From: an uncultured Actinomycetota bacterium
GTDB lineage: Bacteria > Actinomycetota > Actinomycetes > Propionibacteriales > Nocardioidaceae
Length of the DNA: 64,000 nt
Direction: 5' to 3'
Assembly (NCBI GenBank): GCA_963833975.1
Contig: CAWIAB010000004.1
Location: forward strand, 434,586-498,585
Positions within the stretch are counted from its first letter, which is position 1. Each line of letters begins with the position of its first letter. The position numbers were made by a program, and so were the translations under genes. The notes under the pieces are model-generated. The model made no database searches. It saw only the letters and a list, made by a program, of their open reading frames with translations, and was not told where the DNA came from. Of this stretch, positions 1 to 27,660 are shown piece after piece.

Positions 1-735
1 ACCCCCGATGCCGCCTCCTGGGCGTCATCGGCAGCCTTCGCCGGGTCCGCCGCCAGGATCGCCGCAGCGACAATGATCTTCAACCGCCGCCACGTCAACC
101 CCCCGGCCAGGTCCGCGATCCGCGCATCCACCGCCGCCGCAGCCTCCACGCGTCAGCGGCCGGGCCTCTTGCACGATCCGGCGGGCCAACCACACCTCCA
201 CCCACCCGTCCTGGACCCGTCGCCACAACAGCGGGAACCGGTGCCGCAGATCCAGCCCATCCCCGATCAGCGACTTCGCCGCACCATCCGTCCTCCCGAG
301 CACCGCACCCAGCTCGGCCGGTGCGAACTCCGCCACCTCCGGCGTCCCATCCCCACCCAGCCGCACCAGCCGCTCCCGACCCCTCCCGGTCGCACCCGGA
401 CGAGCCAGCACCGCATGCAGGTCCGCCCAATGCAGAGCCAGCCACAGCTGCTTGGCCTGCACCCGCCGCTCCGCCTGCTTCGTGCCGGCCGCCTCCGCGA
501 GAGTTCCATCGGCATCCAGCCCGTCCAGCCGGGACTGCTCAAGCGACGCCTCGAAGTCCGCCATCGCATGCGCCGCCACCTCATGGATGGGCACCAAGTC
601 GTTGTCGTCTGGCGCCTCCGGGTCGCCCTCATCGAGTTCGTCGACATCGATGATGTCGTCGTCGGCCGGAGGCACCGGCGGCACGAAATCCGCCCACACC
701 TCCGCCTCATCCGACGGATCCATCATCTCGAACAT
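1..735 (-). pseudogene. DUF222 / HNH-endonuclease-family protein (13E12-repeat-like), N-terminal part, frameshifted, runs off the left edge
   Basis: ORF 25..777 (-); likely ATG at 735 (MFEMMDPSDEAEVW). The middle (LWLALHWADLH...APAELGAVLGRTDGAAKSLIGDGLDLRHRFPLLWRRVQDGWVEVWLARRIV) resembles actinobacterial DUF222 proteins from memory. After ...QEARPLT (about nt 148) the listed frame becomes Gly/Cys/Arg junk. The next frame reads EAAAAVDARIADLAGGLTWRRLKIIVAAAILAADPAKAADDAQEAASG to the window edge, implying a 1-nt insertion. Confidence 0.55.
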
Positions 736-938
736 GTGCACTAATCTACTACCGCTCACCGACACTCCCCTGCCCATACCCCGTTATCCACAACGCGGTT
801 GCACCACTTCACTTCGGCGGCGGCATCGCGGATACCGAAGACGTGCTGTGACTACTGGCCCCCCTTTGCCGGGAAGGGTCCGGCCAATAGCGAGTCCTAG
901 GATGAACTCCAGTGCGCATCGACGGGAGACGACGAGAC

Positions 939-1238
939 ATGGTGATGGTGGGGGTGTTGGCTCAGTTCGAGTTCAAGGCCGGCGAGGAGGCGGGCGCTCG
1001 AGAGTTCTTCGACAATGGCCGGCTCATCGTCGAGGAGCAGCCGGCCACGACCGTGTGGTACGCCTTCAGATCGGGGCCTACGACGTACGGCGCGTTCGCC
1101 GTCTTCTCGGATGAGGCAGATCGAGACGCACTGCTCTCCGCCGGTGGGCCGAAGTCAGCACGCACGAACGCCGACCTGTTCGAGCGACCACCGACCTTCG
1201 AGAAGGTTGAGATCGTCGCCGCCCGAGACAAGGGCTGA
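939..1238 (+). CDS. antibiotic-biosynthesis-monooxygenase (ABM) fold protein, YgiN-like
   Basis: ORF 912..1238; preferred ATG at 939 downstream of GGGAGA. About 100 aa. The pattern VGVLAQFEFKAGEEAGAREFF...VWYAF...YGAFAVFSDEADRDA is typical of ABM-domain proteins. Confidence 0.6.
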   Translation: MVMVGVLAQFEFKAGEEAGAREFFDNGRLIVEEQPATTVWYAFRSGPTTYGAFAVFSDEADRDALLSAGGPKSARTNADLFERPPTFEKVEIVAARDKG

Positions 1239-1254
1239 CTCGGTCGGCGTCGGC

Positions 1255-2169
1255 TCAGAAGAGGGCGGCAGTGAGTGCTCGCCTGGCCTTGCCGACACGC
1301 GCGTCGGCATCGCCGACGACCGAGAACAGGTCTAGGAGATGCTTGCGCGCGGCGTCGCGATCGCCCTCGCTGGTGCGTCGGATCAGGTCGATCATCCGGG
1401 CGAAGGCGTCGTCGACATGACCACCGAGCAGGTCGAGGTCGGCTACCAGGCTCTGTGCCGCCACGTCATCAGGCGTGGCCGCTGCGGCGGCGCGGGCCGC
1501 TGCCTGGTCGACGCCGATGGTGCGCTTCAGCATCTTCGCCCTGGCCAGTCCCTCCTGCGCCTCGGCGTCGCCTGGAAGCTTCGCGAGCTCCGCCTCGTAC
1601 TGGGCGATCGCCTCGTCCAGGTCACCGCGAAGCAGGGCATCCTCGGCGGCCGGGAACCTGGCTGGCGGCTCCTCGGGCGCGGCTTGGTCGACGGCGGGCG
1701 CGACCGGCTCCGCCGTACCCGTGATGCCGTTGGCCGCCGCGGCCTGCAGGATCTGCTGGATCACTGCCCGCATCTCTGCTTCGGGCAGCACCTCCTGGAA
1801 GAGCGGCGCCAGCTGACCTCGCAACGCGGCCGCCACGAGCGGAACGCTCGGGATCCCGATGGCCGCCACCAGAGTGGCGTTCGCCTGCGCATCCAGGGTG
1901 GCCAGCAGAAACCGACCGCCGAACTCAGTGGCGAGCTTCGTCAGAGTCTCGTTGATCTGAACTGACTCGGGGACGTCCGGTGACCAGACGCTGAGCAGCA
2001 CGACCACCGACATGGAGCGCTCGACGACATCGATGCTGAGCGACTCCTCGCCCGTGACCTCCACCACGAACGTCCCGCCGCCGCCACCGCCCGCGCCGGG
2101 ACGCGCCTGGGTGGGGCGGAACGCGGACAGGTCGACCGCGCCCGGCCTCGAGAACTGCGGAGTCGTCAT
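1255..2169 (-). CDS. thioredoxin-domain plus TPR co-chaperone (YbbN/CnoX-like)
   Basis: Intact 304-aa ORF. It has an N-terminal thioredoxin-like region without a CxxC motif and a C-terminal TPR-like region (LLRGDLDEAIAQYEAELAKLPGDAEAQEGLARA...). Its ATG overlaps the stop of the upstream gene (ATGA at 2166-2169). Confidence 0.8.
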   Translation of the reverse strand: MTTPQFSRPGAVDLSAFRPTQARPGAGGGGGGTFVVEVTGEESLSIDVVERSMSVVVLLSVWSPDVPESVQINETLTKLATEFGGRFLLATLDAQANATLVAAIGIPSVPLVAAALRGQLAPLFQEVLPEAEMRAVIQQILQAAAANGITGTAEPVAPAVDQAAPEEPPARFPAAEDALLRGDLDEAIAQYEAELAKLPGDAEAQEGLARAKMLKRTIGVDQAAARAAAAATPDDVAAQSLVADLDLLGGHVDDAFARMIDLIRRTSEGDRDAARKHLLDLFSVVGDADARVGKARRALTAALF

Positions 2170-4128
2170 GGCTTCATCTTAGTGTTCGCTTTCCGTCGGG
2201 TCGGCGGCGTGCCGCGAACGGGTCGGTAGTGGTCGAAGGTGCACTCGAGCACCGCTTCACCGCGAGTAAGCGCTGGGAGCCTTTCCTGCAGCTTCGGCAC
2301 GGCGGTTGCGGGGATCTCGCCCGCCAGCCGGTACGAGGAACCTCTCAGCTCCGGCGTTCCTGGCACCGCTCGCAGCAGGGAGAGGACGGGCAGCACAGGT
2401 CCCAGCGCCTGGTGGGGAATCTCCAGCTGGAAACGGTGGATCGGCTCACACACGCAGGTCCCGGCCCGCTTCAGGGCCGCCGCGACAACCAGTCGTCGTC
2501 ACAGCGCGGAAGTCGTCGGCCGTGCTCGACATCGCCTTGTCGAAGTGGGCGTGGGTATGGCTCTGGCGGGCGGCATAGCCGGAGCTCACGATCGTCACCC
2601 GGCAGTCGATGACCTGCCATCCGTAGCGACCGGAGCGTAGTGCCAGCGGGATGGTCTCCTCGATGGCCGTGAGAAACGCGCGCGTGAGTGCCCCTCGCTC
2701 GATCTCGAGCTGCACGGTGATCCCTGAACCCTCAGCCGCCGGCTCGACCCGGAGCCCAACGCCGGCGAGGTATGGCCGCTCTGGCGTGCGCCCGCTCGGC
2801 AGCAGCTCGATGGCCGTACCGGAACCGACCGGCCGCTCGACGCAGATCGTCGTCGACTCGAGGAAGTCGACCTGTACATCGAAGTCCTCGGCCAGCGTGT
2901 CGCGGATGACCTCCTTCTGCACCTCGCCGTACAGGGAGACGATCGTCTCGCCCGAACCCTCGATCTCACGGAGGTTGATCAGCGGGTCTTGTTCCGCGAG
3001 CTGCGTGAGCGCGAGATGGAGGCCTGCCCTGTCGGCAGTGTTACGAGGGACCACCACCGTCTCCAGGGTCGGTGGAGCGAACCGATAGCCGTTCGACCCG
3101 GGCGGCGCCATCCCGATCATGTCACCGATCTGGACGTCCCCGAGGCCCCAGACCTTGCCGATCCGACCAGCCGCAAGGGTTTCACGCGGGGTCGCCGTCC
3201 CGCGCTCGAAGACGCTGATCCCGGTGACCTTGCGTCGGTGGTTCCCACCCACCAGCAGCCGGTCCCGCGTTCGCAGGGTGCCCGCGAACAAGCGCACGTA
3301 GGCGATCCGCTCTCCCGACGCGCCGCGGTCGATCTTGAAGACCGTTCCCGAGGGGTCGGCATCGACGTTGCCCTCGACGGCAGGCAGCAGGCCGGCGATA
3401 CCGGTCATCAGCGAGTCCACCCCCGCCCCGGTGATTGCCGAACCGAGGTAGACCGGATGCACCAGCGCCCGCCGAGTCTGGTCCCTCAGTTCCTCGCACA
3501 GGCGTGGGTGCGACATCGCCGGCTCGTCGCCCAGGTACGTGGCCAGGAAGGCATCGTCGTGGTCGGCGAGCAGATCGACCAGCCGGGACCTGGCGTTTCG
3601 GTCCGCTCGCGCCGTACGGCGAGAACCGCAGCGTGTCGCGAGCCGAGGCCGCTCACGGATCCCATCACGACCGGAGCCAGTCCCAGCTTGTCCACGACAT
3701 CGGAGACGACTCGCTCGTCGTTCGCGCCTCGCCGGTCGATCTTGTTCACGAACACCAGGGTGGGCACGCGCAGCCGCCGCAACGCACGCACCAGCACCCG
3801 AGTCTGGGCCTGGACGCCTTCCACAGCAGAGATGACGAGGACGGCGCCGTCGAGCACACCGAGCACCCGCTCCACCTCGGCGATGAAGTCCGGGTGCCCG
3901 GGCGTATCGATCAGGTTGACGGTCACGTCGTCGATGACGAAGGAGACGACGGCGGACTTGATCGTGATGCCGCGTCGTCGTTCCAGGACCAACGTGTCGG
4001 CCTGCGTGGTGCCGTCATCGACGCTGCCGACCTCGTCGATGACCCCGGCGGCATAGAGCAGCCGCTCGGTCAGAGCTGGTTTTACCGGCGTCTACATGCG
4101 CCAGAATCCCCAGGTTGAGCGTTCGCAT
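2166..4128 (-). pseudogene. Tet(M)/OtrA-type ribosomal-protection GTPase (EF-G family), interrupted by four 1-nt insertions
   Basis: ATG at 4128 gives MRTLNLGILAHVDAGKTS, then a frame break at about 4074 before LTERLLYAAGVIDEVGSVDDGTTQADTLVLERRRGITIK...NLIDTPGHPDFIAEV...NKIDRRGA (G1-G4 motifs). Further breaks are at about 3638, 3607 and 2493. Length 1963 nt = 653 codons + 4. Pieces appear in ORFs 3486..3992, 2446..3516 and 2166..2453. Confidence 0.8.
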
Positions 4129-4295
4129 CAAGCGTCATGTCCTTTGGATAGGCGAAAGTTCCCCTTCCTGTGCACATGAACGCTCTTCGCATGTCACTCT
4201 CCTCGCTCGATTGCCGTAAGCCGGAGAGTGCAACAGACCGGCCGCCCTGGGGGCAACCGGTTTGTTGGGTGAGGCTCAGTTCGTCGGCGTCCGGA

Positions 4296-5998
4296 TCAGA
4301 ACCGGGCGGGCTCGCGGTACTCGCCCCACTCGGCGCGCAGGGCGTCGCAGATCTCCCCCAGCGTGGCCTCGGCGCGCGCGGCATCGAGCATCGCCGGGAT
4401 CATGTTGTCGCTTGACCGCGCAGCCTCGACCATCCGGCCGAGCGCCTCGTCGACCACTGCCTGGTCGCGGACCTGACGCCGCCCGGTGAGGTCGCGCACC
4501 TGGTCGACCTCGACCTCGTGCGAGACCCGCAGGATCTCGAGGTCATGGGTCACCGAGTCGAGGTGGCAGTTGACGCCGACGACCTTCTTCTCGCCCTTCT
4601 CGAGCGCGACCTGGTACTGGAAGGCCGCCTCGGCGATCTCCGACATGAACCAGCCGTCCTCGATGCCGCGCAGGATGCCGCTCGTCATCGGGCCGATCTC
4701 GTGCTTGCGCTGGTCGCCGCCGCCCATCTCCTTGACCCGGGCGAAGATGGCCTCCGCCTCCGCCTCGAGCCGGTCGGTCAGCGCCTCGACGTACCACGAA
4801 CCGCCGAGCGGGTCGGCGACGTTGACGACGCCGGTCTCCTCCATGATCACCTGCTGGGTGCGCAGGGCGATCTCGGCCGCCTGCTCGCTGGGGAGGGCCA
4901 GCGTCTCGTCGAGGGCGTTGGTGTGCAGGGAGTTCGTGCCCCCGAGTACGGCGGCCAGCGCCTCGACCGCCGTACGCACGACGTTGTTGTACGGCTGCTG
5001 GGCGGTCAGCGAGACGCCGGCGGTCTGGGTGTGGAAGCGCAGCCACTGGGCGCGGTCGGTCTTCGCGCCGTACACGTCACGCATCCAGCGCGCCCAGATC
5101 CGCCGGGCGGCGCGGAACTTCGCGATCTCCTCGAAGAAGTCCAGGTGCGCGTCGAAGAAGAACGACAGGCCCGGCGCGAAGACGTCGACGTCCAGGCCGC
5201 GGGAGAGGCCGAGCTCGACGTACCCGAAGCCGTCGACGAGGGTGAAGGCGAGCTCCTGCGCGGCCGTCGAGCCGGCCTCGCGGATGTGGTAGCCGGAGAC
5301 GCTCAGCGGCTTGTAGTCGGGGATCTCGGCGGCGCAGTACTCCATCAGGTCGCCGATCAGCCGCAGGTGCGGCGCCGGCGGGAACAGCCACTCCTTCTGC
5401 GCGATGTACTCCTTGAAGATGTCGGTCTGCAGCGTGCCGTTGAGCTTGCCGATGTCGGCGCCCTGCCGCTCGGCCGCGACCAGGTACATGCAGAACACCG
5501 GGACGGCCGGGCCGGAGATCGTCATCGAGGTGGTGACGTCCTCGAGCGGGATGTCGCGCGAACAGCGCCTCCATGTCGACCGCGCTGTCGATCGCGACGC
5601 CGCAGTGCCCGACCTCGCCCAGCGCCTGCGGGTCGTCGCTGTCGCGGCCCATCAGGGTCGGCATGTCGAACGCGACGGAGAGCCCGCCGCCGCCGCGACC
5701 GAGGATCATCTTGTAGCGCTCGTTGGTCTGGACGGCGTTGCCGAAGCCGGCGAACTGACGGATCGTCCAGCTGCGCCCGCGGTAGCCGGTGGGGTAGAGG
5801 CCTCGGGTGAACGGGTACTCGCCCGGCCAGCCGATGCGCTCGAAGTCGGGCCGGGTCTCGCCTGGCTCGGGACCGTAGACCGGGTCGACCTCGACCCCGG
5901 ACAGCGTGGTGAAGTCGATGTCACGGACCCGAGAGGCCGCGTAGCGCTGTTCCCAGCGCCGGCGGCCGGCCTCGATGTCGTCGTCCGATGTCAGCCAT
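4296..5998 (-). pseudogene. icmA: isobutyryl-CoA-mutase-type acyl-CoA mutase large (catalytic) subunit without B12 domain, two 1-nt insertions
   Basis: ORF 4296..5525 plus ORF 5077..5709 and upstream frame. Sequence: MADI|DDDIEAGRRRWEQRY...GWPGEYPFTRGLYPTGYRGRSWTIRQFAGFGN...LSVAFDMPTLMG...MEALF|DIPLEDVTTSMTISGPAVPVFCMY...EWGEYREPARF. Breaks are at about 5986 and 5558. 1703 nt = 567 codons + 2, matching the roughly 566-aa IcmA size I recall. Subfamily (Icm versus Hcm or other) is not resolvable here. Confidence 0.8.
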
Positions 5999-6029
5999 GG
6001 TCGCCTCCGCAGTGCTCACTGTCTGGGCA

Positions 6030-6053
6030 AACTAGTTGGACGTCCAACTAGTT
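6030..6053. promoter_or_regulatory. perfect 24-bp palindrome AACTAGTTGGACGTCCAACTAGTT, candidate operator upstream of the icmA-like gene
   Basis: Read directly: three nested 8-bp palindromes (AACTAGTT, GGACGTCC, AACTAGTT). It is AT-richer than its surroundings and lies 32 nt upstream of the ATG at 5998, in a 260-bp intergenic gap. Confidence 0.5.
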
Positions 6054-6258
6054 GGCTCAAGGGTAGCCCGGCATTGCTCTTCGCGCCGAATCCATCGACA
6101 CGTCACACCAGACCGACCGAGAAGCGCACCGGGACCAAAGGCGAGATGTGAGGCGGACTGGAGCCGCGTCGTCGTCGCTGCGGTTGCAGTGAGGGAACCA
6201 CAGCCGAACCGCAGCCGAGAACTCTGGACCGTGGCATAACCCCAGCCGGCAGAGACCG

Positions 6259-6765
6259 CTACTCGGTGAAGTCTCCGGCGGCCAGCCGGACCGGGCGCAG
6301 GACGTCGAAGATCGCCTCGAGCTCGGCCGAGCCGAGGCTGCCCAGCCCGAAGTCGGCCTCGACGAGAGCCTTGGTCGCGTCGGCGACCCGCTCGCGGCCG
6401 AGGTCCGTGATCTCGGCGAGCACGGTACGACGATCCGTCGGGTGGTTGCGTCGGGTGACGAGCGACGCCGCCTCGAGCCGCCGGATGATCGACGTGACCG
6501 ACGTCGGATGCACCTGGAGGCGCTCCCCCATCTTGCCCAGCGGGAGCGACCCGCGGCGGGAGAACGTCAGCAGCACCAACGCCTCATACCGGGCAAACGT
6601 CAGACCATGCTCACGCAACGTCTCGTCGAGCTCGTTCAGCACGAGCTGTTGCACGCGCATCAGGCTGGTCACGGCGCGCATCCCGTCGACCGCATCCCAT
6701 CGGGTCGACCAGTGGCGCGCTGCCTCCTCGATGGGGTCGAACGGCAGCGGCTCGTGACGAGCCAT
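6259..6765 (-). CDS. MarR family transcriptional regulator
   Basis: Intact 168-aa ORF with a winged-helix region (LTFARYEALVLLTF...LPLGKMGERLQVHPTSVTSIIRRLEAASLVTRRNHPTDRRTVLAEITDLG). Confidence 0.85.
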   Translation of the reverse strand: MARHEPLPFDPIEEAARHWSTRWDAVDGMRAVTSLMRVQQLVLNELDETLREHGLTFARYEALVLLTFSRRGSLPLGKMGERLQVHPTSVTSIIRRLEAASLVTRRNHPTDRRTVLAEITDLGRERVADATKALVEADFGLGSLGSAELEAIFDVLRPVRLAAGDFTE

Positions 6766-6785
6766 GATCTGACCCTAGCGGTCGG

Positions 6786-7805
6786 TCAGGGCACCAGTTC
6801 GATGACCGCGTGAGCCAGCGACCGGACCATCGACTCGTGCGACGGCGGTTTCCTCGTCGACGACCACGACGCGCCGGAACCCAGTCGGCCCGGCACCCCA
6901 CGGTGCACCGTGAAGCGCCAGCTCCCCGTCTCATCCACGGCCAGGATCGCGCGCAGGTCACCGTATGGGGTCTCCAGCGTGGCCGCAGCGTCCCGCCGGA
7001 TCTGGCTGGCCATGTGTTCGACCCGCGCGGCCAGCCAGTCGGGGAGGGCCATCCCGTGGTGGAGCTCGGGCGAGACCGCCAGCGCCTCCAGACGGGGGTC
7101 CGAGACGAGCTCCGCGACGAGGCTCGAGCTTCCGCCGACGTAGGTCCACGCCAGGTCGATATCGGTCGCCAAACACCAGGAGTGGTCGCTCGGCCACCAC
7201 AGGTTCGGAGTCTGATGCTTGCTCTCCATGAGCGCCAGGGCGTCACCCGGGCCGCCGGAGTAGAGGAAGTACTCGCGGCCCGGCAGCTCGGCCGTCGGTC
7301 CGGCCCGAACGTCTGTCGGCACCGGGTCTCCTAGCATGGCCAGCACCTCTTCGCGCTCGGGTGCATCAGCACCGGGGCTGGCGGACAAAGCCGAGAGCTC
7401 GGCCGCCGACGTCTCCCAGCCGAAGCCATGCCACACCCCGAAAGACCACGGCAGGCGACCGCCTTCACTCGCGAACAGGATCTCGCCGAGCGCGGCTGCG
7501 TACGCCGGACTCAGCGTCCCCTCCTCGGGGCCGGTGTCCCAGGGCAGCGGCGCGACCGGCAGCCGCTCCGGCAGCGCGATCTCCGGGAACTGGGCGTCGG
7601 GCCTCAGTGGAAGCCCGCTCCAGGCGGCAACCTCGGACCAGCGCACGGGAACCGGCTCATCGCCCACCGTCCGCGACGCCGGGTGGAAGATCCGGGCGTA
7701 CGCCTCGAAGCCCCCTGGGACGACAGACGTCGCAATCCCGGAGTCGAGCGGCGACAAGCGAGTACGGATCCAGTCCACTTGTCCCACGTCGCCACTCCAC
7801 TCCAT
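6786..7805 (-). CDS. hypothetical protein (339 aa), co-oriented between the ABC permease and MarR genes
   Basis: Intact ORF with coding-like composition and no family I can name with confidence. Internal motif WWPSDHSWCLATDIDLAWTYVGGSSSLVAEL. Confidence 0.55.
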   Translation of the reverse strand: MEWSGDVGQVDWIRTRLSPLDSGIATSVVPGGFEAYARIFHPASRTVGDEPVPVRWSEVAAWSGLPLRPDAQFPEIALPERLPVAPLPWDTGPEEGTLSPAYAAALGEILFASEGGRLPWSFGVWHGFGWETSAAELSALSASPGADAPEREEVLAMLGDPVPTDVRAGPTAELPGREYFLYSGGPGDALALMESKHQTPNLWWPSDHSWCLATDIDLAWTYVGGSSSLVAELVSDPRLEALAVSPELHHGMALPDWLAARVEHMASQIRRDAAATLETPYGDLRAILAVDETGSWRFTVHRGVPGRLGSGASWSSTRKPPSHESMVRSLAHAVIELVP

Positions 7806-7818
7806 GCCGACCAGCGTC

Positions 7819-13270: not shown

Positions 13271-13271
13271 G

Positions 13272-16154: not shown

Positions 16155-16158
<4 letters not shown>
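15141..16158 (-). pseudogene. meaB: methylmalonyl-CoA-mutase-associated G3E GTPase MeaB/ArgK, probable 1-nt insertion near the N-terminus
   Basis: ORF 15141..16031 (GTG) carries the P-loop GSPGVGKST and downstream G-motifs. The family-typical N-terminal helix (QVIGRRAGAQASVGDLVERARSGDPRAV) is encoded in frame upstream of 16031, but there is no start codon back to an in-frame TGA. A GTG at 16158, overlapping the thiolase stop, is one frame off, so one extra base is implied near 16100. If that is wrong, the CDS is 15141..16031. Confidence 0.6.
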
Positions 16159-17347
<1,189 letters not shown>

Positions 17348-17489: not shown

Positions 17490-17939
17490 ATGTTCCCCGC
17501 CGGCCTGATCACCGCCGTCGACCACGTCGGCATCGCCGTACCCGACCTCGATGATGCGGTCGCCTTCTATGCCGAGAACTTCGGCTTCCAGGTCGTGCAC
17601 GAGGAGGTCAACGAGGGGCAGGGTGTCCGAGAGGCGATGCTGGCCGTCGGCGACTCCGGGGTCTGCCTCCAGCTGCTGGCCCCGCTCGGCCCCGACTCGG
17701 CGATCACGACGTTCCTGGAGCGGCAGGGACCAGGCGTCCAGCAGGTCGCGTACCGGGTCACCAGCATCGACGACGCCATGACCGCCGTGCGCGAGCAGGG
17801 CATGCGGCTGCTGTACGACGAGCCGCGGCGTGGGACCGCGAACAGCCGGATCAACTTCATCCACCCGAAGGACGCCGGCGGGGTCCTCGTGGAGCTGGTC
17901 GAGCCGGCTTCCGCCGACGCAGGCGCTCCGGGCCACTAG
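17490..17939 (+). CDS. mce: methylmalonyl-CoA epimerase (VOC superfamily)
   Basis: ATG at 17490 within ORF 17244..17939: MFPAGLITAVDHVGIAVPDLDDAVAFYAENFGF...GVQQVAYRV...INFIHPKDAGGVLVELVE. Intact. Confidence 0.8.
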   Translation: MFPAGLITAVDHVGIAVPDLDDAVAFYAENFGFQVVHEEVNEGQGVREAMLAVGDSGVCLQLLAPLGPDSAITTFLERQGPGVQQVAYRVTSIDDAMTAVREQGMRLLYDEPRRGTANSRINFIHPKDAGGVLVELVEPASADAGAPGH

Positions 17940-17950
17940 GCTCCCCAGCC

Positions 17951-19292: not shown

Positions 19293-19666
19293 ACCGTGGC
19301 GGACCGCAGAAACGCCGCACCGAGCGTGAAAAGGTGGGTATGACACCGCGGGAGCCGGCAGGACTCCCCAACCAGGACTGAGGAATTGCAGACGCCGATG
19401 ACCGAGCAGCCACCTTCGCCACAGCCCGGACTCTCCATCTTCGAGTCTCCACCCGAGCGACCAGCAGAGCGCGCCACCCGCGGAGGCTCCGCGGCCCCGC
19501 CTGCCGGCGGCACCGCGCCCGTCGGACCGGCTTCCGCTGGACCCGCCTCCGGTGAACCCGCCGGTAACCGGTCGGTGGACCCTCGACCGGTGGGTCGACC
19601 GCCGCCGGACCGGCTCCGGTCCCCAACCAGGCCAATCCGGCCGGCGGGGGACAGCCCGCGTTCGCG

Positions 19667-20698
19667 GTGGTGCGCCGCGGCGGCTACGACCGGGCGGCGG
19701 TCGACTCCTACGTGAGCCAGACCGAGTCCCTACGGGTCGGCGCGAACCAGGCCGACCAGGCGTCCAAGCAGGAGCTCCGGAGCCTTCGGGACAAGGTGGC
19801 CGAGCTCGAGCAACGGCTGTCCGAGACCGAGACACCGACCTACGCCGGTCTGGGTGGGCGGGCCGCGGCGATGCTGCGGCTGGCCCAGGAGGAGGCCGAC
19901 GACGTCCGTAGCCGGGCCCAGCTCGCCGCGGAGGAGTCCCGACGGCACATCGTCAGCGAGGCCGCCGCGCTCCGCGCCGACGCCGAGAAGGAGGCCGAGG
20001 ACATCCGGTCGGTGCAGATGCGCGAGATCGACGAGCGTCGCTCATCGGTGCTCGCCGAGGCCGAGCAGGAGCGGTCGCTGGCCCGGGCCGAGGCGCACGA
20101 CATCCTGGCGTCTGCCAACCGGGAGGCCGAGCAGCTCCGGCTGGCCGCCCAGCAGGAGGTCAATGCGCTGCGCACCACAGCCAGGCGCGAGGCCGAGCAG
20201 CTCCGCGCCGCGGCCGACCGCGAGACGATGGAGGCCCGCCGCACGCTGGCGGTCGAGAAGGAGCGGCTGACCAAGGAGGCCGCGGAGCGGCACTCGGTGG
20301 CCGTCTCCGAGACCGGCCGACTCGTGGAGGAGGCCGAGGCTCGGGCGAACGGCGCCGAGGAGCGGGCCAGGGAGGCCATCGCCACCGCGACCAAGCATCG
20401 CGAGCAGACAACCGCCGAGGGTGAGAAGACGCTTGCCCGGTCGCGGCGCGAGGCGGAGCAGATGGTGACGGCAGCGCGCAAGCAGGCCGAGCAGATCGTC
20501 CGCAACGCCGAAGCCGACGCCGAGCGACGTCAGGCGGCGACCCGGCACGACCTCGAAGCCTTGCAGGCCAGACGGGACGGCATCGTCGCTCAGCTCGGCC
20601 AGCTCCAGGACGTGCTGCGGTCGTTCTCGAACGACCCTGGGTCGCTGGACGCGGACGCCTCGACGTCGGACGACCCACCGCCGGGTGCCACGACGTAG
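19667..20698 (+). CDS. DivIVA-domain coiled-coil protein
   Basis: ORF from GTG 19667 (VVRRGGYDRAAVDSYV...) followed by long Ala/Glu/Arg coiled-coil repeats. The family motif needs the upstream F (PAFAVVRRGGYD), and that frame has no start back to a TAA at 19565. A Pro/Gly-rich N-terminus starting at ATG 19398 (MTEQPPSPQPGLSIFE) would join it with a 1-nt deletion near 19565 (tentative). Confidence 0.65.
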   Translation: MVRRGGYDRAAVDSYVSQTESLRVGANQADQASKQELRSLRDKVAELEQRLSETETPTYAGLGGRAAAMLRLAQEEADDVRSRAQLAAEESRRHIVSEAAALRADAEKEAEDIRSVQMREIDERRSSVLAEAEQERSLARAEAHDILASANREAEQLRLAAQQEVNALRTTARREAEQLRAAADRETMEARRTLAVEKERLTKEAAERHSVAVSETGRLVEEAEARANGAEERAREAIATATKHREQTTAEGEKTLARSRREAEQMVTAARKQAEQIVRNAEADAERRQAATRHDLEALQARRDGIVAQLGQLQDVLRSFSNDPGSLDADASTSDDPPPGATT

Positions 20699-20745
20699 CC
20701 AACGCGCCGCGTTGTTGACCCGCCGATATATGCCAAGGTGGTCCC

Positions 20746-21945
20746 ATGTCGGCGCGTGAGGAGCCTGCCCATCCGCTGGAGCAGCTGTCCGGCGCCGCCG
20801 ACCGGGCGCTGACCCAGCGCGAGTCCGCCATCCGGGACGACGTACCTCCCCGACCGGACGTGGCCGAGCCTGAGGTCGATGACGAGGAGCATCCGTTCGG
20901 AGCACCCGGGCCGCCGATCTCCCGCCACTCGGCTTTCTACAAGGGCTTCTGGACGGGTCTGGGGGCCTTCACGGCGCTGGCGCTGGCGTTGGCCATTCGT
21001 CACGTCGAGTCCGTCATCGTGCTTCTGCTGGTCTCGATCTTCCTCGCGGTCGGCCTCAACCCGCTGGTCGAGTGGCTCGAGCGGAGGTCGATCAGGCGCC
21101 GGTGGGCCGTCCTCATCGTCACCCTCGGCCTGCTCGGCTTCGTCGCCCTGTTCATCGTGTCGTTGGTGCCGGTCCTGCGGGACCAGATCAACGAGCTGAT
21201 CGACAACGCACCCGGCTGGCTGGACTCGCTGCGCCGCAACCAGACGGTCAAGGACCTCGACGAGAAGTACGGGGTGATCGACAAGGTCACCCAGAAGCTT
21301 CAGGACCCATCCCTCGCCACGACGGCCTTCGGCAGCATCTTCAGCGTCGGTCTGGCCGTGCTGAGCGCGCTGCTCAACGCCTTCCTCGTCTTCGTGCTGA
21401 CCCTGTACTTCCTGACGTCACTGCCGCAGATCAAGAAGGCGTGCTACTCCCTCGCCCCCGCGTCGCGTCGGGAGCGAGTCACCAACCTCGGTGACGAGAT
21501 CCTGCGTGGGGTCGGCGGATACGTGTCTGGGGCCTTCCTGGTCGCGCTGTGCGCGGGCGTCTCGTCGTTCGTCTTCCTGGAGATCGCAGGCCTCGGGAAG
21601 TACGCCCTCGCGCTGGCCCTCGTCGTGGCGATCCTCGACTTCATCCCGCTGGTCGGCGCCACCATCGCAGCGGTCCTGGTGTCGGTGGTCGGGTTCGCCA
21701 CCTCGCTGGGGATCGGCATCGCCTGCGTGGTCTTCTACATCATCTACCAGCAGATCGAGAACTATGTCTTGTACCCGCGCGTGATGCGGCACTCCGTCGA
21801 CGTACCAGGCATCGTCACCGTGGTGGCCGTGCTGGTCGGTGGCACCCTGATGGGTGTCGTCGGTGCGCTGCTCGCGATCCCCATGGCGGCCGCGATCCTG
21901 CTTCTGGTGAGGGAGATCGTCGTACGGCGCCAGGACGAGACCTAG
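20746..21945 (+). CDS. AI-2E family transporter (PerM/YhhT-like permease)
   Basis: Intact 399-aa ORF with multiple TM segments and the family-typical C-terminal half (LDFIPLVGATIAAVLV...YQQIENYVLYPRVM). Confidence 0.8.
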   Translation: MSAREEPAHPLEQLSGAADRALTQRESAIRDDVPPRPDVAEPEVDDEEHPFGAPGPPISRHSAFYKGFWTGLGAFTALALALAIRHVESVIVLLLVSIFLAVGLNPLVEWLERRSIRRRWAVLIVTLGLLGFVALFIVSLVPVLRDQINELIDNAPGWLDSLRRNQTVKDLDEKYGVIDKVTQKLQDPSLATTAFGSIFSVGLAVLSALLNAFLVFVLTLYFLTSLPQIKKACYSLAPASRRERVTNLGDEILRGVGGYVSGAFLVALCAGVSSFVFLEIAGLGKYALALALVVAILDFIPLVGATIAAVLVSVVGFATSLGIGIACVVFYIIYQQIENYVLYPRVMRHSVDVPGIVTVVAVLVGGTLMGVVGALLAIPMAAAILLLVREIVVRRQDET

Positions 21946-22010
21946 CGAGGCTTGGCCGGCCGGTGACACACTGCAGACCTCACATCAAGCACCATTCGGG
22001 GAGGTCCGGC

Positions 22011-23192
22011 ATGAAGATATGCTCGCGCGCTTTAGGCTGCGCACTGGTGGCGATCGGCGGGCTGCTGCTCGGCTCGGTTCAAGCGGCACAGGCCGCACCT
22101 GGAGCCCCCTCGCCGGCGCCCTGGGTCAGCACCACAGCGGGCGCGGCCCAAACCTGCGGGTTGCGCAGCAATCTCGGCCTGTGGTGTTGGGGTTTCAACA
22201 GCTACGGCCAGGTTGGCGACGGAACCACGACCTGGCGCAGCCTGCCGGTCCGGATCGGGCGGCAGGCGACCTGGGCTTCCGTGAGCGCGGGTTTCGTCCA
22301 CACCTGCGCGATCCGCACCGATGCCACCGCCTGGTGTTGGGGAGACAACCGGGCCGGCCAGCTGGGCGACGGGACGTCCGTGCAGCGCCATAGCCCCTTC
22401 CAGGTGGGCAGCAACGACGACTGGGCGACCATCAGCGCAGGGGGGCGGCACTCGTGCGGCACCCGGACCGACGGCACGGTCTGGTGCTGGGGGGCGAACG
22501 GCTATGGTCAGCTCGGCGACGGCACAACGCGACGTAAGAGGATCCCGGTGCAGGTCGGCACAAGCCACGACTGGGTGAGTGTGAGTGCGGGGCACATGCA
22601 CACCTGTGCGACGAAGGCTGATGGCTCCGCCTGGTGCTGGGGCCACGACGCCACCGGTCAGCTGGGCGACGGCACGCGGACCGACCGCAACGTCCCCGTC
22701 CAGGTCGACGGGGTCGGGGAATGGCGGCTCGTCGTGGCGGGCTACGGGCACACCTGTGGCATCAGAGCCGATGGCTCCGCCTGGTGCTGGGGCGCCAACA
22801 GCCGAGGGCAGCTAGGCGACGGCACCCATGCCCTGAGCGCCGTACCGGTGCAGGTGGGCTCCGCCACGAGCTGGGCGGGGATCGCCGTGGGCGGTCGTCA
22901 CACCTGCGCCACCCGCATCACCGGCACCGCCTGGTGTTGGGGCGGCAACCCGTTCGGGGCGCTGGGCGTCGGGGATCGGTCCGACCGCTCGTCACCCACC
23001 CAGGTCGGGACGGCGACGATCTGGGCCTCGATCTCCGCGGGTCACTACCACTCGTGTGCCCTCGAGCTCTCGGGACGGGCTTGGTGCTGGGGCTTCAACG
23101 GCGCCGGACAGCTAGGGACCGGCGACACCCGTGACCGGATCAGACCGGTCCAGGTGAAGCGTGACCACCAGGATTCGGCGTCCGGCGGTTAG
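22011..23192 (+). CDS. secreted RCC1-repeat (beta-propeller) protein
   Basis: ATG at 22011 follows GGGGAGG. Signal peptide MKICSRALGCALVAIGGLLLGSVQAAQA. Seven repeats of the type HTCAxxxDGxAWCWGxNxxGQLGDGT. The annotated ORF 21549..23192 starts too far upstream. Confidence 0.85.
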   Translation: MKICSRALGCALVAIGGLLLGSVQAAQAAPGAPSPAPWVSTTAGAAQTCGLRSNLGLWCWGFNSYGQVGDGTTTWRSLPVRIGRQATWASVSAGFVHTCAIRTDATAWCWGDNRAGQLGDGTSVQRHSPFQVGSNDDWATISAGGRHSCGTRTDGTVWCWGANGYGQLGDGTTRRKRIPVQVGTSHDWVSVSAGHMHTCATKADGSAWCWGHDATGQLGDGTRTDRNVPVQVDGVGEWRLVVAGYGHTCGIRADGSAWCWGANSRGQLGDGTHALSAVPVQVGSATSWAGIAVGGRHTCATRITGTAWCWGGNPFGALGVGDRSDRSSPTQVGTATIWASISAGHYHSCALELSGRAWCWGFNGAGQLGTGDTRDRIRPVQVKRDHQDSASGG

Positions 23193-24028
23193 CTGCCCTC
23201 GGGTGCGCCGTGGGCCTTGATGGACAGCGGCTCCCACTCGCGCCAGGTGGCGAGCCGGTTCTCGTAGTCCTTGGTCGCGATGGCCAACGGACCGTCGCCG
23301 AAGAAGATCCGCAGCGGCGGGTTCTCGGCGTCGACCAGCTCGAGGATCGCCTCCCGAGTAGCCAGCGGGTTGCCGCGACCAGGCGCGACCTCGGCCCGCC
23401 GAGCCTCGAGCCGGGTCCGGAGGTCGTCGTAGGCGTCGATGGTTGTCGTGTGCCGTGCCGACGGGCCGGCCCAGTCCGTTGTGTAGCCGGCCGGCTCGAT
23501 CACGGTGACCTTGATGCCGAACTCTGCGACCTCGGCGGCGAGTGACTGGCTGATGCCCTCGAGCGCCCACTTGGAAGCGTGGTACATGCCGATGTTCGGG
23601 AAGGCGGTGATGCCGCCGATCGACGTGACCTGCAGGATGTGTCCGGATCCCTGTGCCCGCAAGAACGGCAGCGCCGCCTGCGTCACCCAGAGCGCGCCGA
23701 AGAGGTTCGTCTCGATCTGGTCGCGGGCCTCCTGCTCACTGAGCTCCTCGACGAAACCGAACTGGCCGTAGCCCGCGTTGTTGATGACGATGTCGAGCCG
23801 ACCGAACGTCTCGTGCGCCTTCGCGACGGCCGCGAAGTCGGCCTCGCGGTCGGTCACGTCGAGCCGAAGCGGGAGGAGTGCGGTGCCGTACGTGTCGGCG
23901 AGGTCATCGAGCGTGGAGGTGTCGCGCGCCGTGGCCGCGACCGAGTCGCCGCGTTCGAGCGCGGCGATCGTCCACTCGCGGCCGAAGCCTCGGGAGGCGC
24001 CGGTGATGAACCATGTCTTCTCTGCCAT
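23189..24028 (-). CDS. SDR family oxidoreductase
   Basis: Intact 279-aa ORF with TGASRGFG, NNAG and YHASKWA motifs. Confidence 0.85.
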   Translation of the reverse strand: MAEKTWFITGASRGFGREWTIAALERGDSVAATARDTSTLDDLADTYGTALLPLRLDVTDREADFAAVAKAHETFGRLDIVINNAGYGQFGFVEELSEQEARDQIETNLFGALWVTQAALPFLRAQGSGHILQVTSIGGITAFPNIGMYHASKWALEGISQSLAAEVAEFGIKVTVIEPAGYTTDWAGPSARHTTTIDAYDDLRTRLEARRAEVAPGRGNPLATREAILELVDAENPPLRIFFGDGPLAIATKDYENRLATWREWEPLSIKAHGAPEGS

Positions 24029-24064
24029 CAGATCTCCTGTTGTCTACGTGGCGTTCGGGTCGGC

Positions 24065-25063
24065 TCAGCGGCTCGCGGAAGGGATCAGGCCAGCCGCTTC
24101 GGCGAGCAGCTCGAACGAACGCAACCGTTGCGGTCCGCTCGGCGACTGACCGGCCACGATCAGCTCATCGGCGTCCGCGTGCGCGACGAATCCGTCCAGG
24201 TAGTCCTTGACCTCGGGCGGTGTCCCCAGGGCTGTGTACGTCGTCATCTGCCGAATCTGCTGTCCTGCAGGCGACTCGAGGAGGATGTCGGCCTGCTCGT
24301 CGGTGAAGCGCCGACCGCGGCCCAGCATGAGACTGACTCGCCGCCGCAGCGCCACCCGCAGCTGCTCCTGCGCTTCGTCGGTCGTATCGGCCGCGATGAC
24401 GTTCACCCCGGCGACGACGTACGGCTCCGCGAGCTGCTCCGACGGCTGAAAGTCCCTTCGGTATGTCGCGACGGCGTCGTGCAGCGCGGCCGGGGCGAAG
24501 TGCGAAGCGAAGCAGTACGGCAGCCCGAGCGCGGCGGCCAGCTGCGCGCCGAAGAGGGACGAGCCGAGGATGTAGAGCGGCACCTGCGTACCCCGGCCCG
24601 GCGTCGCGTGGACCCCTGGCACCCGGGAGTCGGTGGACAGATAGCCCTGGAGCTCGAGCACGTCCTGCGGGAAGGTGTCGGCGGACATCGGGTTGCGCCG
24701 CAGTGCCCGCATCATCTCCTGGTCGCCGCCCGGGGCTCGGCCGAGGCCGAGGTCGATCCGCCCGGGGTGCAGCGTCTCGAGGGTGCCGAACTGCTCCGCG
24801 ATCGTCAGCGGCGCGTGGTTCGGCAGCATGACACCGCCCGCCCCGACCCGGATCGTCGAGGTGTTCGCCGCGATGTGCGCGATCAGCACACTGGTCGCGG
24901 ACGAGGCGATGGTCGACATGTTGTGGTGCTCGGCGTACCAGACTCGGCGGTATCCCCACGCCTCTGCGCGCTGGGCTAGCTCGACACTGGCCGTGAAGCT
25001 GTCGCGTGCCGTCTCTCCCTCGCCGATCGCGGCCAGGTCGAGGATCGAGAGGGGAACTGTCAT
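24065..25063 (-). CDS. LLM-class (luciferase-like) flavin-dependent oxidoreductase
   Basis: ATG at 25063 ([17 protein letters not shown]...) within ORF 24065..25363. Contains WYAEHHNM and other luciferase-like monooxygenase family features. Confidence 0.8.
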
Positions 25064-25101
25064 CCTTGGCGGCAACCGATCGACGCTGCTCCCTATTCCC
25101 G

Positions 25102-25855
25102 TTAGTGGCCCAGGACCCGCGGAGGCTCGTGTGTGATGTCGCCCACCCAGGTGGTCGGCAGGGGCGCGGCGGCCGGGTTGAGGTGCTGCACGATGAGGTC
25201 GAGCACGATGTCGGCCTGCCCCACCCAGAGATGCTTCCCGTCGGGTACGGCGATCACCTCGGCCTGCGGGATCGCGGCGAACCGCCGGCGCGCCTCGTCG
25301 GGACGCAGGTAGTCGTCGTACTCGGGCACGATCGCCACGACCGGCTTGCCGGAGTCGGCCCACCCGGCAAGATCCGCGTCAGCTGCGGACTTCAGCGGCG
25401 GGGACAGGAGAACGGCGCCGATCACGGACGGCTCGTTGCCGTACCTCAACGCCAGGTCGGTGCCGAACGACCAGCCGACGACCCAGCACTTCGGCAGATC
25501 GGCGAACTCGGCGTACTCGACAGCGGCCGCGACGTCGTACCTCTCGCCCGTCCCGTCGTCGAACACTCCCTCGCTGGTGCCGTGGATGCTCGACGTGCCG
25601 CGGGTGTTGAAACGCACCACTGCCAGCTGCGCCAAGGCAGGCAACCGGGCGGCCGCCTTGCGGAAGATCTGGCTGTCCATCATGCCACCGTGGGTCGGCA
25701 GCGGGTGCAGGCAGAGCATGGTCGCCACCGGATCGGAGTCGACCGGTAAGGCGACCTCGCCCACCAGACTGAGACCGTCTCGCCGTGGTGAGCGTGATCG
25801 GTTCGCGGCGGGCAGGGAGCAGCGAGTTCGACCGGATCTTGTGAGTGGTGGGCAC
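25102..25855 (-). pseudogene. alpha/beta hydrolase, one 1-nt insertion near the N-terminus
   Basis: ORF 25102..25764 starts at GEVALPVD. Upstream, one frame off, is VPTTHKIRSNSLLPARREPITLTTA followed by DGLSLVGEVALP, consistent with an extra base at about 25780. GTG at 25855. 754 nt = 251 codons + 1. GWSFG nucleophile elbow is present. Confidence 0.65.
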
Positions 25856-25872
25856 GTCGTGCTCGAGACTGC

Positions 25873-27660
25873 TCAGCTCGCAGAGTGGTCGCGGAACCCG
25901 CGGCCGGTCTTGCGACCCAGGTAGCCGGCGGTCACCATGTGCTCGAGCAGTGGCGCGGGGGCGAAGCCAGGCTCGCGGAACTCGAGATAGAGCTGGCGCT
26001 GGATCGCGAGCGAGACGTCGTTGCCGACGACATCGAGCAGCTCGAACGGTCCCATCGGCAGCGCACACCCTTGTTTCATTGCGGTGTCGATGTCGTCGGC
26101 GGTCGCGTAGTGAGCCTCGAGCATGCGCACGGCGTCGTTGAGGTACGGGAAGAGCAGCGCATTGACCACGAAGCCTGCTCGGTCGCCGCACGCGACCGGG
26201 TGCTTGCCGATCGCCAGGCAGACCGCGCGCGCGGTCTCCGTCACCTCTGGCGCTGTCGACACCGTCGAGACGACCTCGACCAGATCCATGACCTGTGCCG
26301 GGTTGAAGAAGTGCATCCCGACGACATCGGACGGCCGCCCGGTCACCGAGGCGATCTCGATCACCGGAAGAGACGACGTGGTCGTCGCCAGGATCGCCCC
26401 AGGCCTGCAGATCTCGTCGAGATTCTCGAACAACGCCTGCTTCACGCTCAGGTCCTCGGCAACCGCCTCGATCGACCAGGTCGACACCGGCCAGGTCGTC
26501 GAGGCGTCGTCGAGCCGTGGATGCGGGCGAGCGCGGTCTCGCGGTCCGACGCGTCCAGCCGGCCACGCTGGACCGCCTTCTCCATGCTGCGCGCCACGAC
26601 CTCGCGGACCTGAGCCACCTTCTCCGGACTGCGGGTGACGTAGGTGACCTCGATGCCTGCCTTGGCGAAGACCTCCACGATCCCGCTGGCCATCGTGCCC
26701 GAACCGACGACTCCGACGTGCTCGACCGGACGCCGCAGCTGCGGGGCCGACTCCGGACGTCGGCGACTCGGCGTCGGCGACCACGACCGGACTGTCCGCG
26801 GCCTCGTAGGTGTAGAAGCCGCGGCCGGTCTTCCGGCCGAGCAGCCCGGCCGTCACCATCTGCTTGATGATGGGCGCCGGAGCGTGCAGCCGGTTGCGAC
26901 CCTGGCGATACATCGTCTCGAGGATCTCGTACGCCGTGTCCAGGCCGATCAGGTCGAGCAGGGCGAGCGGACCCATCGGATACCGGCAGCCGAGCTTCAT
27001 GCCAGCGTCGAGATCCTCACGCGTCGCGTAGTCGGCTCTCGTACATCGAGACCGCATGGTTGAGGTAGCCGAAGAGCAGCGCGTTCGCGATGAAACCCGC
27101 CTTGTCTCCGACGGACACCGGGTTCTTGCCGAGGCGTTTCGCCAGCGCCAGCATGCTCTTCGACGATCTCCGGGTCTGTGACGACGGTGCGGATCACCTC
27201 GACGAACTGCTGCACGGGGGCGGGGTTGAAGAAGTGCATCCCGATCACCCGACCCGGCTGCGAGGTGGCCGCCGAGATCTCCGTGACGCTGAGCGACGAA
27301 GTGTTCGTGGCCAGGACGGCGTCCGGGCGGACGATCTCGTCGAGCTGCTGGAAGATGCCTGCGCTTGAGATCGAGACGCTCGACGACGGCCTCGACGACG
27401 AGGTCGCACTCCTTGAGGTCGCTGAGCGAGGTGGTCAGGGTGAGGCGGTCGAAGAGCGCCTGCTGGTCCGCCGGCGCGAGCTTCCCGCGCTTGACCGCCC
27501 GGTCGGTCGAGTGCTGCACGTGCCCCCGGCCCCGCTCCACCTGCTCGTCGGTCTGCTCGACCCCGATGACGGCGAACCCGTTGCGCGCAAAGACTTCCGC
27601 GATCCCGGCGCCCATCGTGCCCAGACCGACTACGCCGATGGTGGTGAACTCTCGTGCCAT
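25873..27660 (-). pseudogene. tandem-domain 3-hydroxyacyl/3-hydroxybutyryl-CoA dehydrogenase, six 1-nt insertions (net in frame)
   Basis: The 595-aa ORF stays open, but two stretches are out-of-frame junk. The proper sequence is recovered by skipping bases at about 27363, 27155 and 27034 (first domain: ...ERLDLK|[30 protein letters not shown]...[19 protein letters not shown]...IVEE|[28 protein letters not shown]...YES|DYATREDLD). The second domain needs skips at about 26754, 26504 and 26473 (...ESAPQLRRPVEHVGVVGSGTMASGIVEVF...HGSTT|LDDLAGVDLV|IEAVAEDLSVK). Confidence 0.8.

Follow-up and report, generated by a model that had tools for sequence, protein, structure and literature searches.

In the pseudogene accumulation of Mycobacterium leprae and of recent host-restricted pathogens, many adjoining genes are frameshifted. 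Such decay combines nonsense mutations, deletions and IS elements, is common to sister strains and comes with raised dN/dS. It is deletion-biased, as is bacterial mutation in general, and slippage, which duplicates a neighboring base, is the main source of 1-bp insertions in nature. Programmed +1 frameshifting, as in prfB, leaves a lone extra base in an otherwise intact coding sequence, at a site that is single, conserved and motif-dependent. Small-indel frameshifts are also a documented weakness of long-read consensus sequence (PMC9262707; bioRxiv 10.1101/2021.08.23.457338), and Nanopore consensus errors are described mainly as homopolymer indels (PMC9262707). Here we compare with these systems a window of 64,000 nucleotides, the whole stretch of DNA analyzed, whose left part is dense with frame changes and whose extra bases are very probably errors of the deposited consensus.

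Frameshift-aware protein-to-DNA alignment against orthologues located 48 frame changes in eleven genes, at positions from ~150 to 27,360. The initial annotation had reported about 45 indels in the first 27.7 kb; these proved real, nearly base for base, and what changes is the count, now 48 to 52 depending on extra calls in permease A. Its estimate of ten, plausibly eleven genes agrees with the eleven found here, the DivIVA-like case staying tentative. The spectrum is strongly skewed, with 44 events being +1 and four net +2/−1 (binomial P = 1.5e-9 for the imbalance between +1 and deletion-like events). A nearly pure +1 spectrum with three deletions had been proposed, of which the first part stands; at least two of the “deletions”, namely those of ccr (~18781) and permease A (~9051), belong to the four deletion-like events and are better read as paired +1 insertions a few bases apart.

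The aligner was written for this purpose and matches protein to DNA with frameshifts permitted, using L082, L001, L003, L081 and TetM-family proteins as references. Relatives came from a contig search with mce as query, in which the best match was 83% identical; L081 and L082, found through cluster members, share ~80% DNA identity with the window, and all comparison references belong to other species. Each frame segment could be aligned to orthologues at 59–89% amino-acid identity, and the frameshift-aware alignment revealed no in-frame stop codons in the hit genes. Aligning the repaired frames to orthologues confirmed the frame joins drawn initially; nearly all sites listed there were recovered within a few bases, and the accompanying gene-length arithmetic (1963, 1703, 1193 and 2322) is correct. 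A reference-free codon-position HMM returned identical frame switches on the left, and on the right only ordinary gene boundaries.

At the left end, a DUF222-like gene (1–783, minus strand) continues past the window edge, so the affected tract spans at least 27 kb and its left limit may lie beyond the window. The gene carries one +1 near 150, where the frame reads ...EVWLARRIVQEARPLT, skips one base and resumes with VEAAAAVDARIADLAGG..., and the HMM switches frame at 150/151. The fragment has no Pfam match, and its family name, taken from the initial annotation, is putative. Four +1 insertions (2493, 3607, ~3626 and 4074) interrupt a gene for a TetM/TetO-family ribosomal-protection GTPase (2166–4128, minus strand) with EF-G domains II–IV by Pfam, the sites being placed by alignment to P0100, P0101 and P0188. 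In the icmA-like acyl-CoA mutase gene (4296–5998, minus strand), +1 events lie at 5556 and ~5986, and the ATG at 5998, preceded by a GGAGG Shine-Dalgarno sequence, does not share the frame of the conserved body (DDDIEAGRRRW).

Event density reaches ~1 per 200 nt in two FtsX-family permease genes. Permease A (7819–10952, minus strand) holds 18 to 22 frame changes, more than the “about twelve” first counted. The core 18, agreed by four references, comprise sixteen +1 events plus net +2 changes at 9051 and 9598, the latter an additional GC within a (GC)5 run. Permease B (10949–13270, minus strand) has nine +1 events, at 11033, 11055, 11116, 11471, 11598, 12226, 12704, 12747 and 13042; all nine are identical with L082, L001 or L003 as reference, and a few differ with the distant L002.

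The remaining hit genes are mainly ones of acyl-CoA metabolism. meaB (15141–16158, minus strand) has a single +1 close to the N-terminus, at ~16110–16122. The gene starts with a GTG that overlaps the stop codon of the thiolase gene (GTGA), and with the same reference the controls L001 and L003 align without a shift of frame. The thiolase gene itself (16155–17347, minus strand) has +1 events at 16494 and 16546. The crotonyl-CoA carboxylase/reductase gene ccr (17951–19292, plus strand) is shifted by +1 at 18344 and 18989; its net +2 at ~18781 probably reflects a pair of +1 insertions separated by 4 nt. In the DivIVA-like gene (19386–20698, plus strand), N-terminus and body are read in separate frames, and the N-terminal residues, MQTPMTEQPPSPQPGLSIFE, match those with which the L082 protein begins; the net −1/+2 near 19567 is a tentative call in a poorly conserved, low-complexity stretch. 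A hydrolase gene (25102–25851, minus strand) follows with one +1 at 25780. The double-domain 3-hydroxyacyl-CoA dehydrogenase gene hbd (25873–27660, minus strand) has six, at 26473, 26507, 26751, 27031, 27155 and 27360, and their net +6 leaves a 595-aa ORF open with about one third of its residues out of frame.

Clean genes are interleaved with these. They comprise the TPR_20-domain gene (1255–2169, minus strand; initially “trx-TPR”), which shows no frameshift against L082; the MarR gene (6259–6765) and a 339-aa ORF (6786–7805), together spanning 6259–7805 on the minus strand; two ABC ATPase genes (13272–14977, minus strand); the methylmalonyl-CoA epimerase gene mce (17490–17939, plus strand); and a clean block (20746–25100) encoding an AI-2E transporter and an RCC1-repeat protein on the plus strand and an SDR and a luciferase-like monooxygenase (LLM) on the minus strand. 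Positions 21946–25136 form a synteny gap, missing in the relatives. Alignment found the TPR, MarR, 339-aa, ABC ATPase, mce and AI-2E genes without a frame break, and RCC1, SDR and LLM each have an uninterrupted ORF that matches Pfam domains, as the initial reading of the interleaved genes had it. Its further claim, that everything from nucS to the right edge is clean, is upheld as well: from nucS through the genes for the ATP synthase alpha and beta subunits, prfA and rho (27722–64000), the HMM detected no frame breaks and Pfam domains are covered essentially end to end. These two measures were used instead of a plain GC3 threshold for ORF tiling, which is too strict to certify the right side.

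The distribution of events is correspondingly patchy. At the left-hand rate, zero events in the right-hand 36.3 kb has a probability of 5e-28. Within the left part, events are significantly clumped (variance/mean 2.5, P = 1e-4) and the largest event-free gap measures 6.2 kb (P = 2e-4); the process is indeed non-uniform, in keeping with the early remark that uniform errors ought to have hit the interleaved sequence too. In an informal comparison, none of GC content, gene conservation, strand or accessory/core status appears to part hit from clean patches. The boundary at 27.4–27.7 kb is collinear with L001, L003, L081 and L082, and the L001 alignment crosses it unbroken. There is therefore no structural breakpoint, and a structural break at 27.7 kb was ruled out.

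Apart from the frame changes, nothing suggests decay, since dN/dS against L082 in the hit genes (0.11–0.39) matches that of their clean neighbors (0.10–0.30), a measure that averages over the whole lineage and that very recent events would escape. The inserted bases are likewise unusual. Only 23% duplicate a neighbor, versus 44–51% expected at random (P = 2e-4 to 3e-3); the other ~77% are not neighbor copies and are mostly non-homopolymer, which fits the earlier observation that the extra bases fall mostly outside homopolymers. No common sequence or slippery motif was found at the window insertion sites. The whole departs from the mixed lesion spectrum, relaxed selection and slippage-type duplications expected of genuine pseudogenes.

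The same signature appears in another assembly. L081 (ENA ERZ25039475 contig_52533, 266 kb), most likely a long-read metagenome contig, comes from a related but different species and has about 33 frameshifts, single-base insertions outnumbering deletions by 30 to 4. They fall at codons other than the window's and are confined to 1325–12468 of the locus, 12.5–20.9 kb being clean. Because errors are restricted to one part of this locus too, patchiness looks like part of the artefact and not like a point against it. Neighbor-duplicating insertions make up 17% in L081, the random expectation over the window and L081 being 44–53%. In L081, G[C]G and C[G]C insertions are moreover overrepresented (20/54 vs ~4 expected, P = 8e-10). 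At about 5.4/40, the window has no clear excess, and the motif was dropped as a link between the two.

Five conserved genes were surveyed in 80 species-representative loci. The 21 loci from Nanopore “MFD” MAGs yielded seven frameshifts, all of them +1, and the remaining 59 loci two +1 and three −1. Whether relatives share the lesions had been raised as a check; orthologues in the 80 loci, none of which is same-species DNA, are essentially intact and lack the window's frameshifts. Relatives catalogued alongside the window's contig are Nanopore MAGs.

Further contigs come from the Logan assembly of run ERR11718634. Two of them encode proteins identical to clean window genes (the 339-aa and the 304-aa TPR_20 proteins), and the contig with the 339-aa protein also carries a 168-aa MarR-family gene, with intergenic spacings as in the window. 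Adjacent to these proteins, the permease A ORF stays open over at least 566 codons (window: 438) and the TetM-like C-terminal frame over at least 254 (window: 110). These contigs thus lack, at a minimum, the lesions at 2493 and ~9.0–9.1 kb; they cover few of the 48 sites, were compared as ORFs and proteins, and may belong to a sister strain. Exact-protein look-ups for AI-2E, ABC2, nucS, mce and ABC1 gave no match, and the Logan partial proteins have no entry in the protein database.

We therefore infer, with little doubt, that the organism itself does not carry the extra bases, which are errors of the deposited consensus. A consensus or polishing artefact had been suspected from the start, and the decay-free genes, the non-duplicating insertions, L081, the MFD loci and the Logan ORFs all support it. 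The window is part of an 832-kb contig of a Nocardioidaceae-like bacterium, present at NCBI and ENA without protein names and most likely assembled from a long-read metagenome, a platform that we infer. A consensus or polishing step would have left spurious single-base insertions in kb-scale patches over at least 27 kb and clean sequence elsewhere, perhaps owing to locally weak read support (low or one-sided coverage, mixed strains or unpolished stretches). As the insertions are mostly non-homopolymer, the exact error mode is not known to match a published description. One conceivable mode, which we rate as unlikely, is that two strains were collapsed and both alleles of a SNP kept side by side, each pair producing a +1, with the patches marking strain differences. 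Several sites do look like one codon carrying a choice of third base (TA[T/C] or AG[C/T], for instance), the inserted bases differ from their neighbors beyond chance, and microdiversity is reported to hamper MAG recovery among Danish Nanopore MAGs (PMC12313526). The third-base doublets carry little weight, however, because a GC3 of ~90% makes most of them synonymous by chance, and the exact insertion slots of L081, at 19, 15 and 9 by codon position, are fitted about equally well by a uniform model and by a SNP-driven one. Retained alleles also predict about equal −1 and +1 events unless the caller is asymmetric. Finally, the lesions spare the accessory island and the 339-aa ORF yet hit the TetM-like accessory gene, which leaves no simple tie to strain-variable content.

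Explanations that place the lesions in the organism fare worse. A real, very recent inactivation by a burst of untemplated +1 insertions over ~27 kb, through localized error-prone repair or an intercalating mutagen, would accord with events that gather in one tract and are not scattered over the genome, and with lesions that stand in the public record, where P0001 and P0088, both broken ORFs, are listed as proteins. We regard it as very improbable. There are no stop codons, larger deletions or raised dN/dS; the 44:4 insertion bias is opposite to the deletion bias of bacteria; and the inserted bases are mostly not neighbor duplicates. Thiolase, ccr, hbd, meaB and icmA, all of central acyl-CoA metabolism, would have been lost simultaneously, L081 shows the same pattern at other sites, at least two breaks are missing on Logan contigs with identical neighbor proteins (possibly of a sister strain), and the surveyed orthologues are essentially intact. 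That a localized process adds untemplated bases and has knocked out eleven genes together with nothing else yet decayed seems more improbable still; if it did, the insertion process would have struck a second time in L081, in the syntenic hbd–ccr–thiolase neighborhood of a related species. Programmed ribosomal frameshifting or transcriptional slippage might bypass the lesions in the living cell; the sole point in favor is that each gene reads through once one base is skipped. Such recoding would have to operate at up to 22 sites within one gene, and L081 positions differ from the window's. With zero sites conserved among orthologues from the 80 loci and no shared slippery motif, recoding is effectively refuted, and we assign it a negligible probability.

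If the consensus is at fault, the affected genes are almost certainly intact in the living organism, and for that reason the lesions have no biological significance: they are a data-quality warning, not a discovery. Broken ORFs have already entered protein catalogues, as a 372-aa fragment (P0001) and a 356-aa fragment (P0088), and hbd would pass as an intact ORF despite its out-of-frame third. Inference of metabolism, pseudogene load or protein families from this MAG would mislead, the most exposed being the ethylmalonyl-CoA-type genes (ccr, meaB, mce, thiolase, hbd and icmA) and the TetM-like resistance gene. The signature of kb-scale patches with almost only +1, mostly non-homopolymer insertions may help to flag such tracts automatically.

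Compared with the described systems, the window shares with the pseudogene accumulation of M. leprae many adjoining frameshifted genes, and none of the nonsense mutations, IS elements, deletion bias, sharing among sister strains or raised dN/dS of natural decay. With prfB-type frameshifting it shares the lone extra base in an otherwise intact coding sequence, although its sites are many, unconserved and motif-less. It differs from published long-read artefacts, which stress homopolymer indels, in that about three quarters of its insertions are non-homopolymer, deletions are nearly absent, and kb-scale patches lie beside error-free sequence. As in the long-read artefacts exposed by IDEEL-type tests and proovframe (PMC9262707; bioRxiv 10.1101/2021.08.23.457338), single-base indels split or garble conserved genes free of other lesions, and frameshift-aware alignment restores the full-length proteins.

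To map the frame changes, we used a purpose-written protein-to-DNA aligner that permits shifts of +1, +2, and -1, with orthologous proteins from four related loci (L082, L001, L003, and L081) as references. All affected genes are intact in L082, an Illumina-style MAG (GCA_033850885.1). The TetM-like GTPase gene is without an orthologue in these loci and was aligned to TetM-family proteins. Frameshift-aware alignment yielded 48 frame changes in eleven genes, comprising 44 of +1 and 4 of net +2/-1. The indel map of the initial annotation was reproduced nearly base for base; nearly all its listed sites stood, permease A proved to carry 18–22 events and the total came to 48 rather than about 45.

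Single changes fall in the DUF222-like gene (~150), meaB (~16122), and the hydrolase (25780), and two each in icmA (5556 and ~5986) and the thiolase (16494 and 16546). Three lie in ccr (18344, ~18781, and 18989), four in the TetM-like gene (2493, 3607, 3626, and 4074), and six in hbd (25873–27660), all +1 (26473, 26507, 26751, 27031, 27155, and 27360). The two FtsX-family permease genes are the most heavily affected, with nine sites in permease B and 18 core sites, up to 22 with some references, in permease A. The DivIVA-like gene shows a net -1/+2 change near 19567, within low-complexity sequence. The icmA site at ~5986 derives from the start-codon frame, as an ATG at 5998, preceded by a GGAGG Shine-Dalgarno, differs in frame from the conserved body. 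The meaB site is based on the conserved GTGA in which the meaB start overlaps the stop of the thiolase gene, and the L001 and L003 controls were clean. In the window, this GTGA occupies 16155–16158, with the meaB GTG start over the thiolase TGA stop, the same arrangement as in L082.

The events at ~18781 in ccr and ~9051 in permease A are each better read as a pair of +1 insertions separated by a few bases, and the permease A event at 9598 is an additional GC within a (GC)5 run; there may thus be hardly any genuine single-base deletions. None of the codons in the frameshift-aware alignments is an in-frame stop. Net shifts per gene showed no trend toward frame restoration, with the exception of hbd, where six +1 changes sum to two codons. 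The resulting 595-aa ORF is open from start to stop with about one third of its residues (~200) out of frame, and hbd would consequently be annotated as intact.

The lesions are patchy. Orthologue alignment found no frameshifts in the TPR, MarR, both ABC ATPase, mce, and AI-2E genes, and the SDR, RCC1-repeat, and luciferase-like monooxygenase genes each form an intact ORF that matches Pfam domains. A codon-position HMM, trained on long ORFs and independent of any reference, recovered the same left-side frame switches as the aligner; between 27.7 and 64 kb, it placed switches only at ordinary gene boundaries and none inside genes. Ten right-hand genes, including atpA, atpD, prfA, rho, and a fused mutase, match their Pfam domains over practically the full length. 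The clean interleaved genes and clean right side noted in the initial annotation were thus borne out by alignment, Pfam, and the HMM, and its point that the lesions are not uniform holds as an observation: the right 36.3 kb holds 0 events versus ~63 expected at the left-hand rate (P = 5e-28), the left part is clumped (variance/mean 2.5 in 1-kb bins, P = 1e-4), and its largest event-free gap spans 6.2 kb (P = 2e-4). Patches, at 2.5–4.1, 5.5–6.0, 8.3–13.0, 16.1–16.5, 18.3–19.6, and 25.8–27.4 kb, measure 0.4–4.8 kb and clean runs 1.5–6.2 kb. By inspection, neither GC content, gene conservation, strand, nor accessory status apparently separates hit from clean stretches. No structural breakpoint was seen at 27.4–27.7 kb, the alignments to L001, L003, L081, and L082 being collinear throughout.

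The window has a GC content of 68% and a Nocardioidaceae-like actinobacterial host; the nearest species-representative loci are Nocardioidaceae/Propionibacteriales MAGs at 70–85% nucleotide identity. It encodes two acyl-CoA mutases, an icmA-like large subunit only (4296–5998) and a 691-aa fusion of mutase and B12-binding domain (40176–42251), which with ccr, mce, meaB, thiolase, and hbd make up a dense ethylmalonyl-CoA-type metabolism cluster. The TetM/TetO-family ribosomal-protection GTPase gene (2166–4128) is missing at the syntenic position in L081 and L082, where TPR and icmA are adjacent, as is a 339-aa ORF without a Pfam match (6786–7805), where MarR and permease A are adjacent. The RCC1-repeat, SDR, and monooxygenase genes lie between the AI-2E transporter and the hydrolase in a frameshift-free block (21946–25136) that is missing at that position in L001, L081, and L082 and, judging by this comparison, looks like an accessory insertion. 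Another RCC1-repeat protein gene (46748–48013, 421 aa) lies ~1.3 kb from the ATP synthase beta gene (49276–50742) on the same strand.

Several lines of evidence bear on whether the lesions are biological. Relative to L082, dN/dS was 0.11–0.39 for hit genes and 0.10–0.30 for clean genes. Bacterial mutation is deletion-biased; here, 44 insertions stand against no more than 4 deletion-like events (binomial P = 1.5e-9). In nature, slippage is the main source of 1-bp insertions and copies an adjacent base. When the extra base was located by local re-scoring against several orthologues, ~23% of insertions in the window duplicated a neighbor versus 44–51% expected at random (P = 2e-4 to 3e-3). Across 80 species-representative loci, thiolase, ccr, hbd, meaB, and mce orthologues were essentially frameshift-free. 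Genuine pseudogenes were rejected, because the tests of lesion spectrum, selection, and mutation context all failed to support them, and recoding was rejected because the sites are neither conserved nor associated with a motif.

A similar pattern appears in other assemblies. L081 (ENA ERZ25039475 contig_52533, 266 kb, with the locus at ~55–76 kb of the contig) comes from a different species, close to L082, and its gene calls are broken into fragments. The aligner found ~33 frameshifts, almost all +1, in its nucS, hbd, DivIVA-like, ccr, thiolase, meaB, and permease B genes, and direct DNA alignment to L082 gave 30 single-base insertions and 4 deletions. These indels lie within 1325–12468 of L081, save two intergenic ones near 17.9 and 19.7 kb, with 12.5–20.9 kb otherwise clean, and they occupy other codons than the window sites. 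The L081 tract starts near the nucS/hbd junction, as does the window tract. L081 has a strong excess of insertions of the type G[C]G or C[G]C (20/54, P = 8e-10), an excess not clearly common to the window. Across ~90 kb of five conserved genes, the 21 loci from a Danish Nanopore MAG collection ('MFD' isolates) carried 7 frameshifts, all +1; in the other 59 of the 80 loci, 198 kb yielded 2 +1 and 3 -1, in part owing to effects at alignment ends. Hence, the near-pure +1 spectrum appears to be a property of this class of assemblies rather than of this organism. For the Danish collection, R10.4.1 reads were assembled with metaFlye and polished in a single Medaka round (PMC12313526). Several database homologues of the TetM-like protein on large ENA or JGI contigs (P0114 and P0191) have termini of arginine/serine-rich nonsense, which suggests that they may likewise be frameshifted near the C-terminus.

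The frameshifts belong to the public record and are not a product of how the window was cut, since the broken ORFs at 7819–8937 (372 aa) and 2446–3516 (356 aa) are already catalogued as proteins P0001 and P0088 from one 832,190-bp contig in NCBI and ENA. Two Logan contigs from run ERR11718634 (3,634 and 2,128 bp, corresponding to window 5,900–9,530 and 800–2,930) encode proteins identical to clean window genes at equal intergenic spacings: the 339-aa ORF beside a 168-aa MarR-family gene on the first (13 and 20 nt), and the 304-aa TPR protein on the second, where the 4-nt overlap and 16-nt spacer also agree with the window. The adjacent permease A ORF on the first contig continues for at least 566 codons, up to the contig end, versus 438 for that frame in the window, and the TetM-like ORF on the second contig stays open for at least 254 versus 110, with the caveat that off-frames in high-GC DNA open by chance. 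To the limited extent that ORF lengths, not DNA, can indicate, at least the breaks at 2493 and ~9.0–9.1 kb therefore appear to be absent there; the run could hold a sister strain. The MarR-icmA spacer (5999–6258) is 260 nt versus 261 nt between the matching Logan gene calls. Either a 1-nt difference in the spacer or another start call could account for this, a hint that there may also be intergenic indels, which a frame-based test does not see.

We conclude that the frame changes are not a real biological feature and very probably reflect local failure of consensus or polishing in a presumed long-read metagenome contig. The dN/dS values, insertion spectrum, neighbor duplication, L081, the Danish loci, and the Logan ORFs all support this artefact interpretation, which the initial annotation had favored. 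Patches and clean runs are similar in size to typical long reads from soil, which would fit fluctuating read support, whether from coverage that is low or confined to one strand, competition between strains, or unpolished stretches. Each insertion might also be a SNP with both alleles retained in the consensus, a rather unlikely form of this artefact that the codon positions of the L081 insertions neither support nor oppose. A real localized burst of insertions in the organism would be remarkable and is highly improbable.

Small-indel frameshifts are a well-documented weakness of long-read consensus and the motive for IDEEL-type checks and frameshift correctors (PMC9262707; bioRxiv 10.1101/2021.08.23.457338). 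Compared with textbook long-read indel errors, however, those in the window differ in being insertion-only, in falling mostly outside homopolymers, and in occurring in patches beside error-free sequence.
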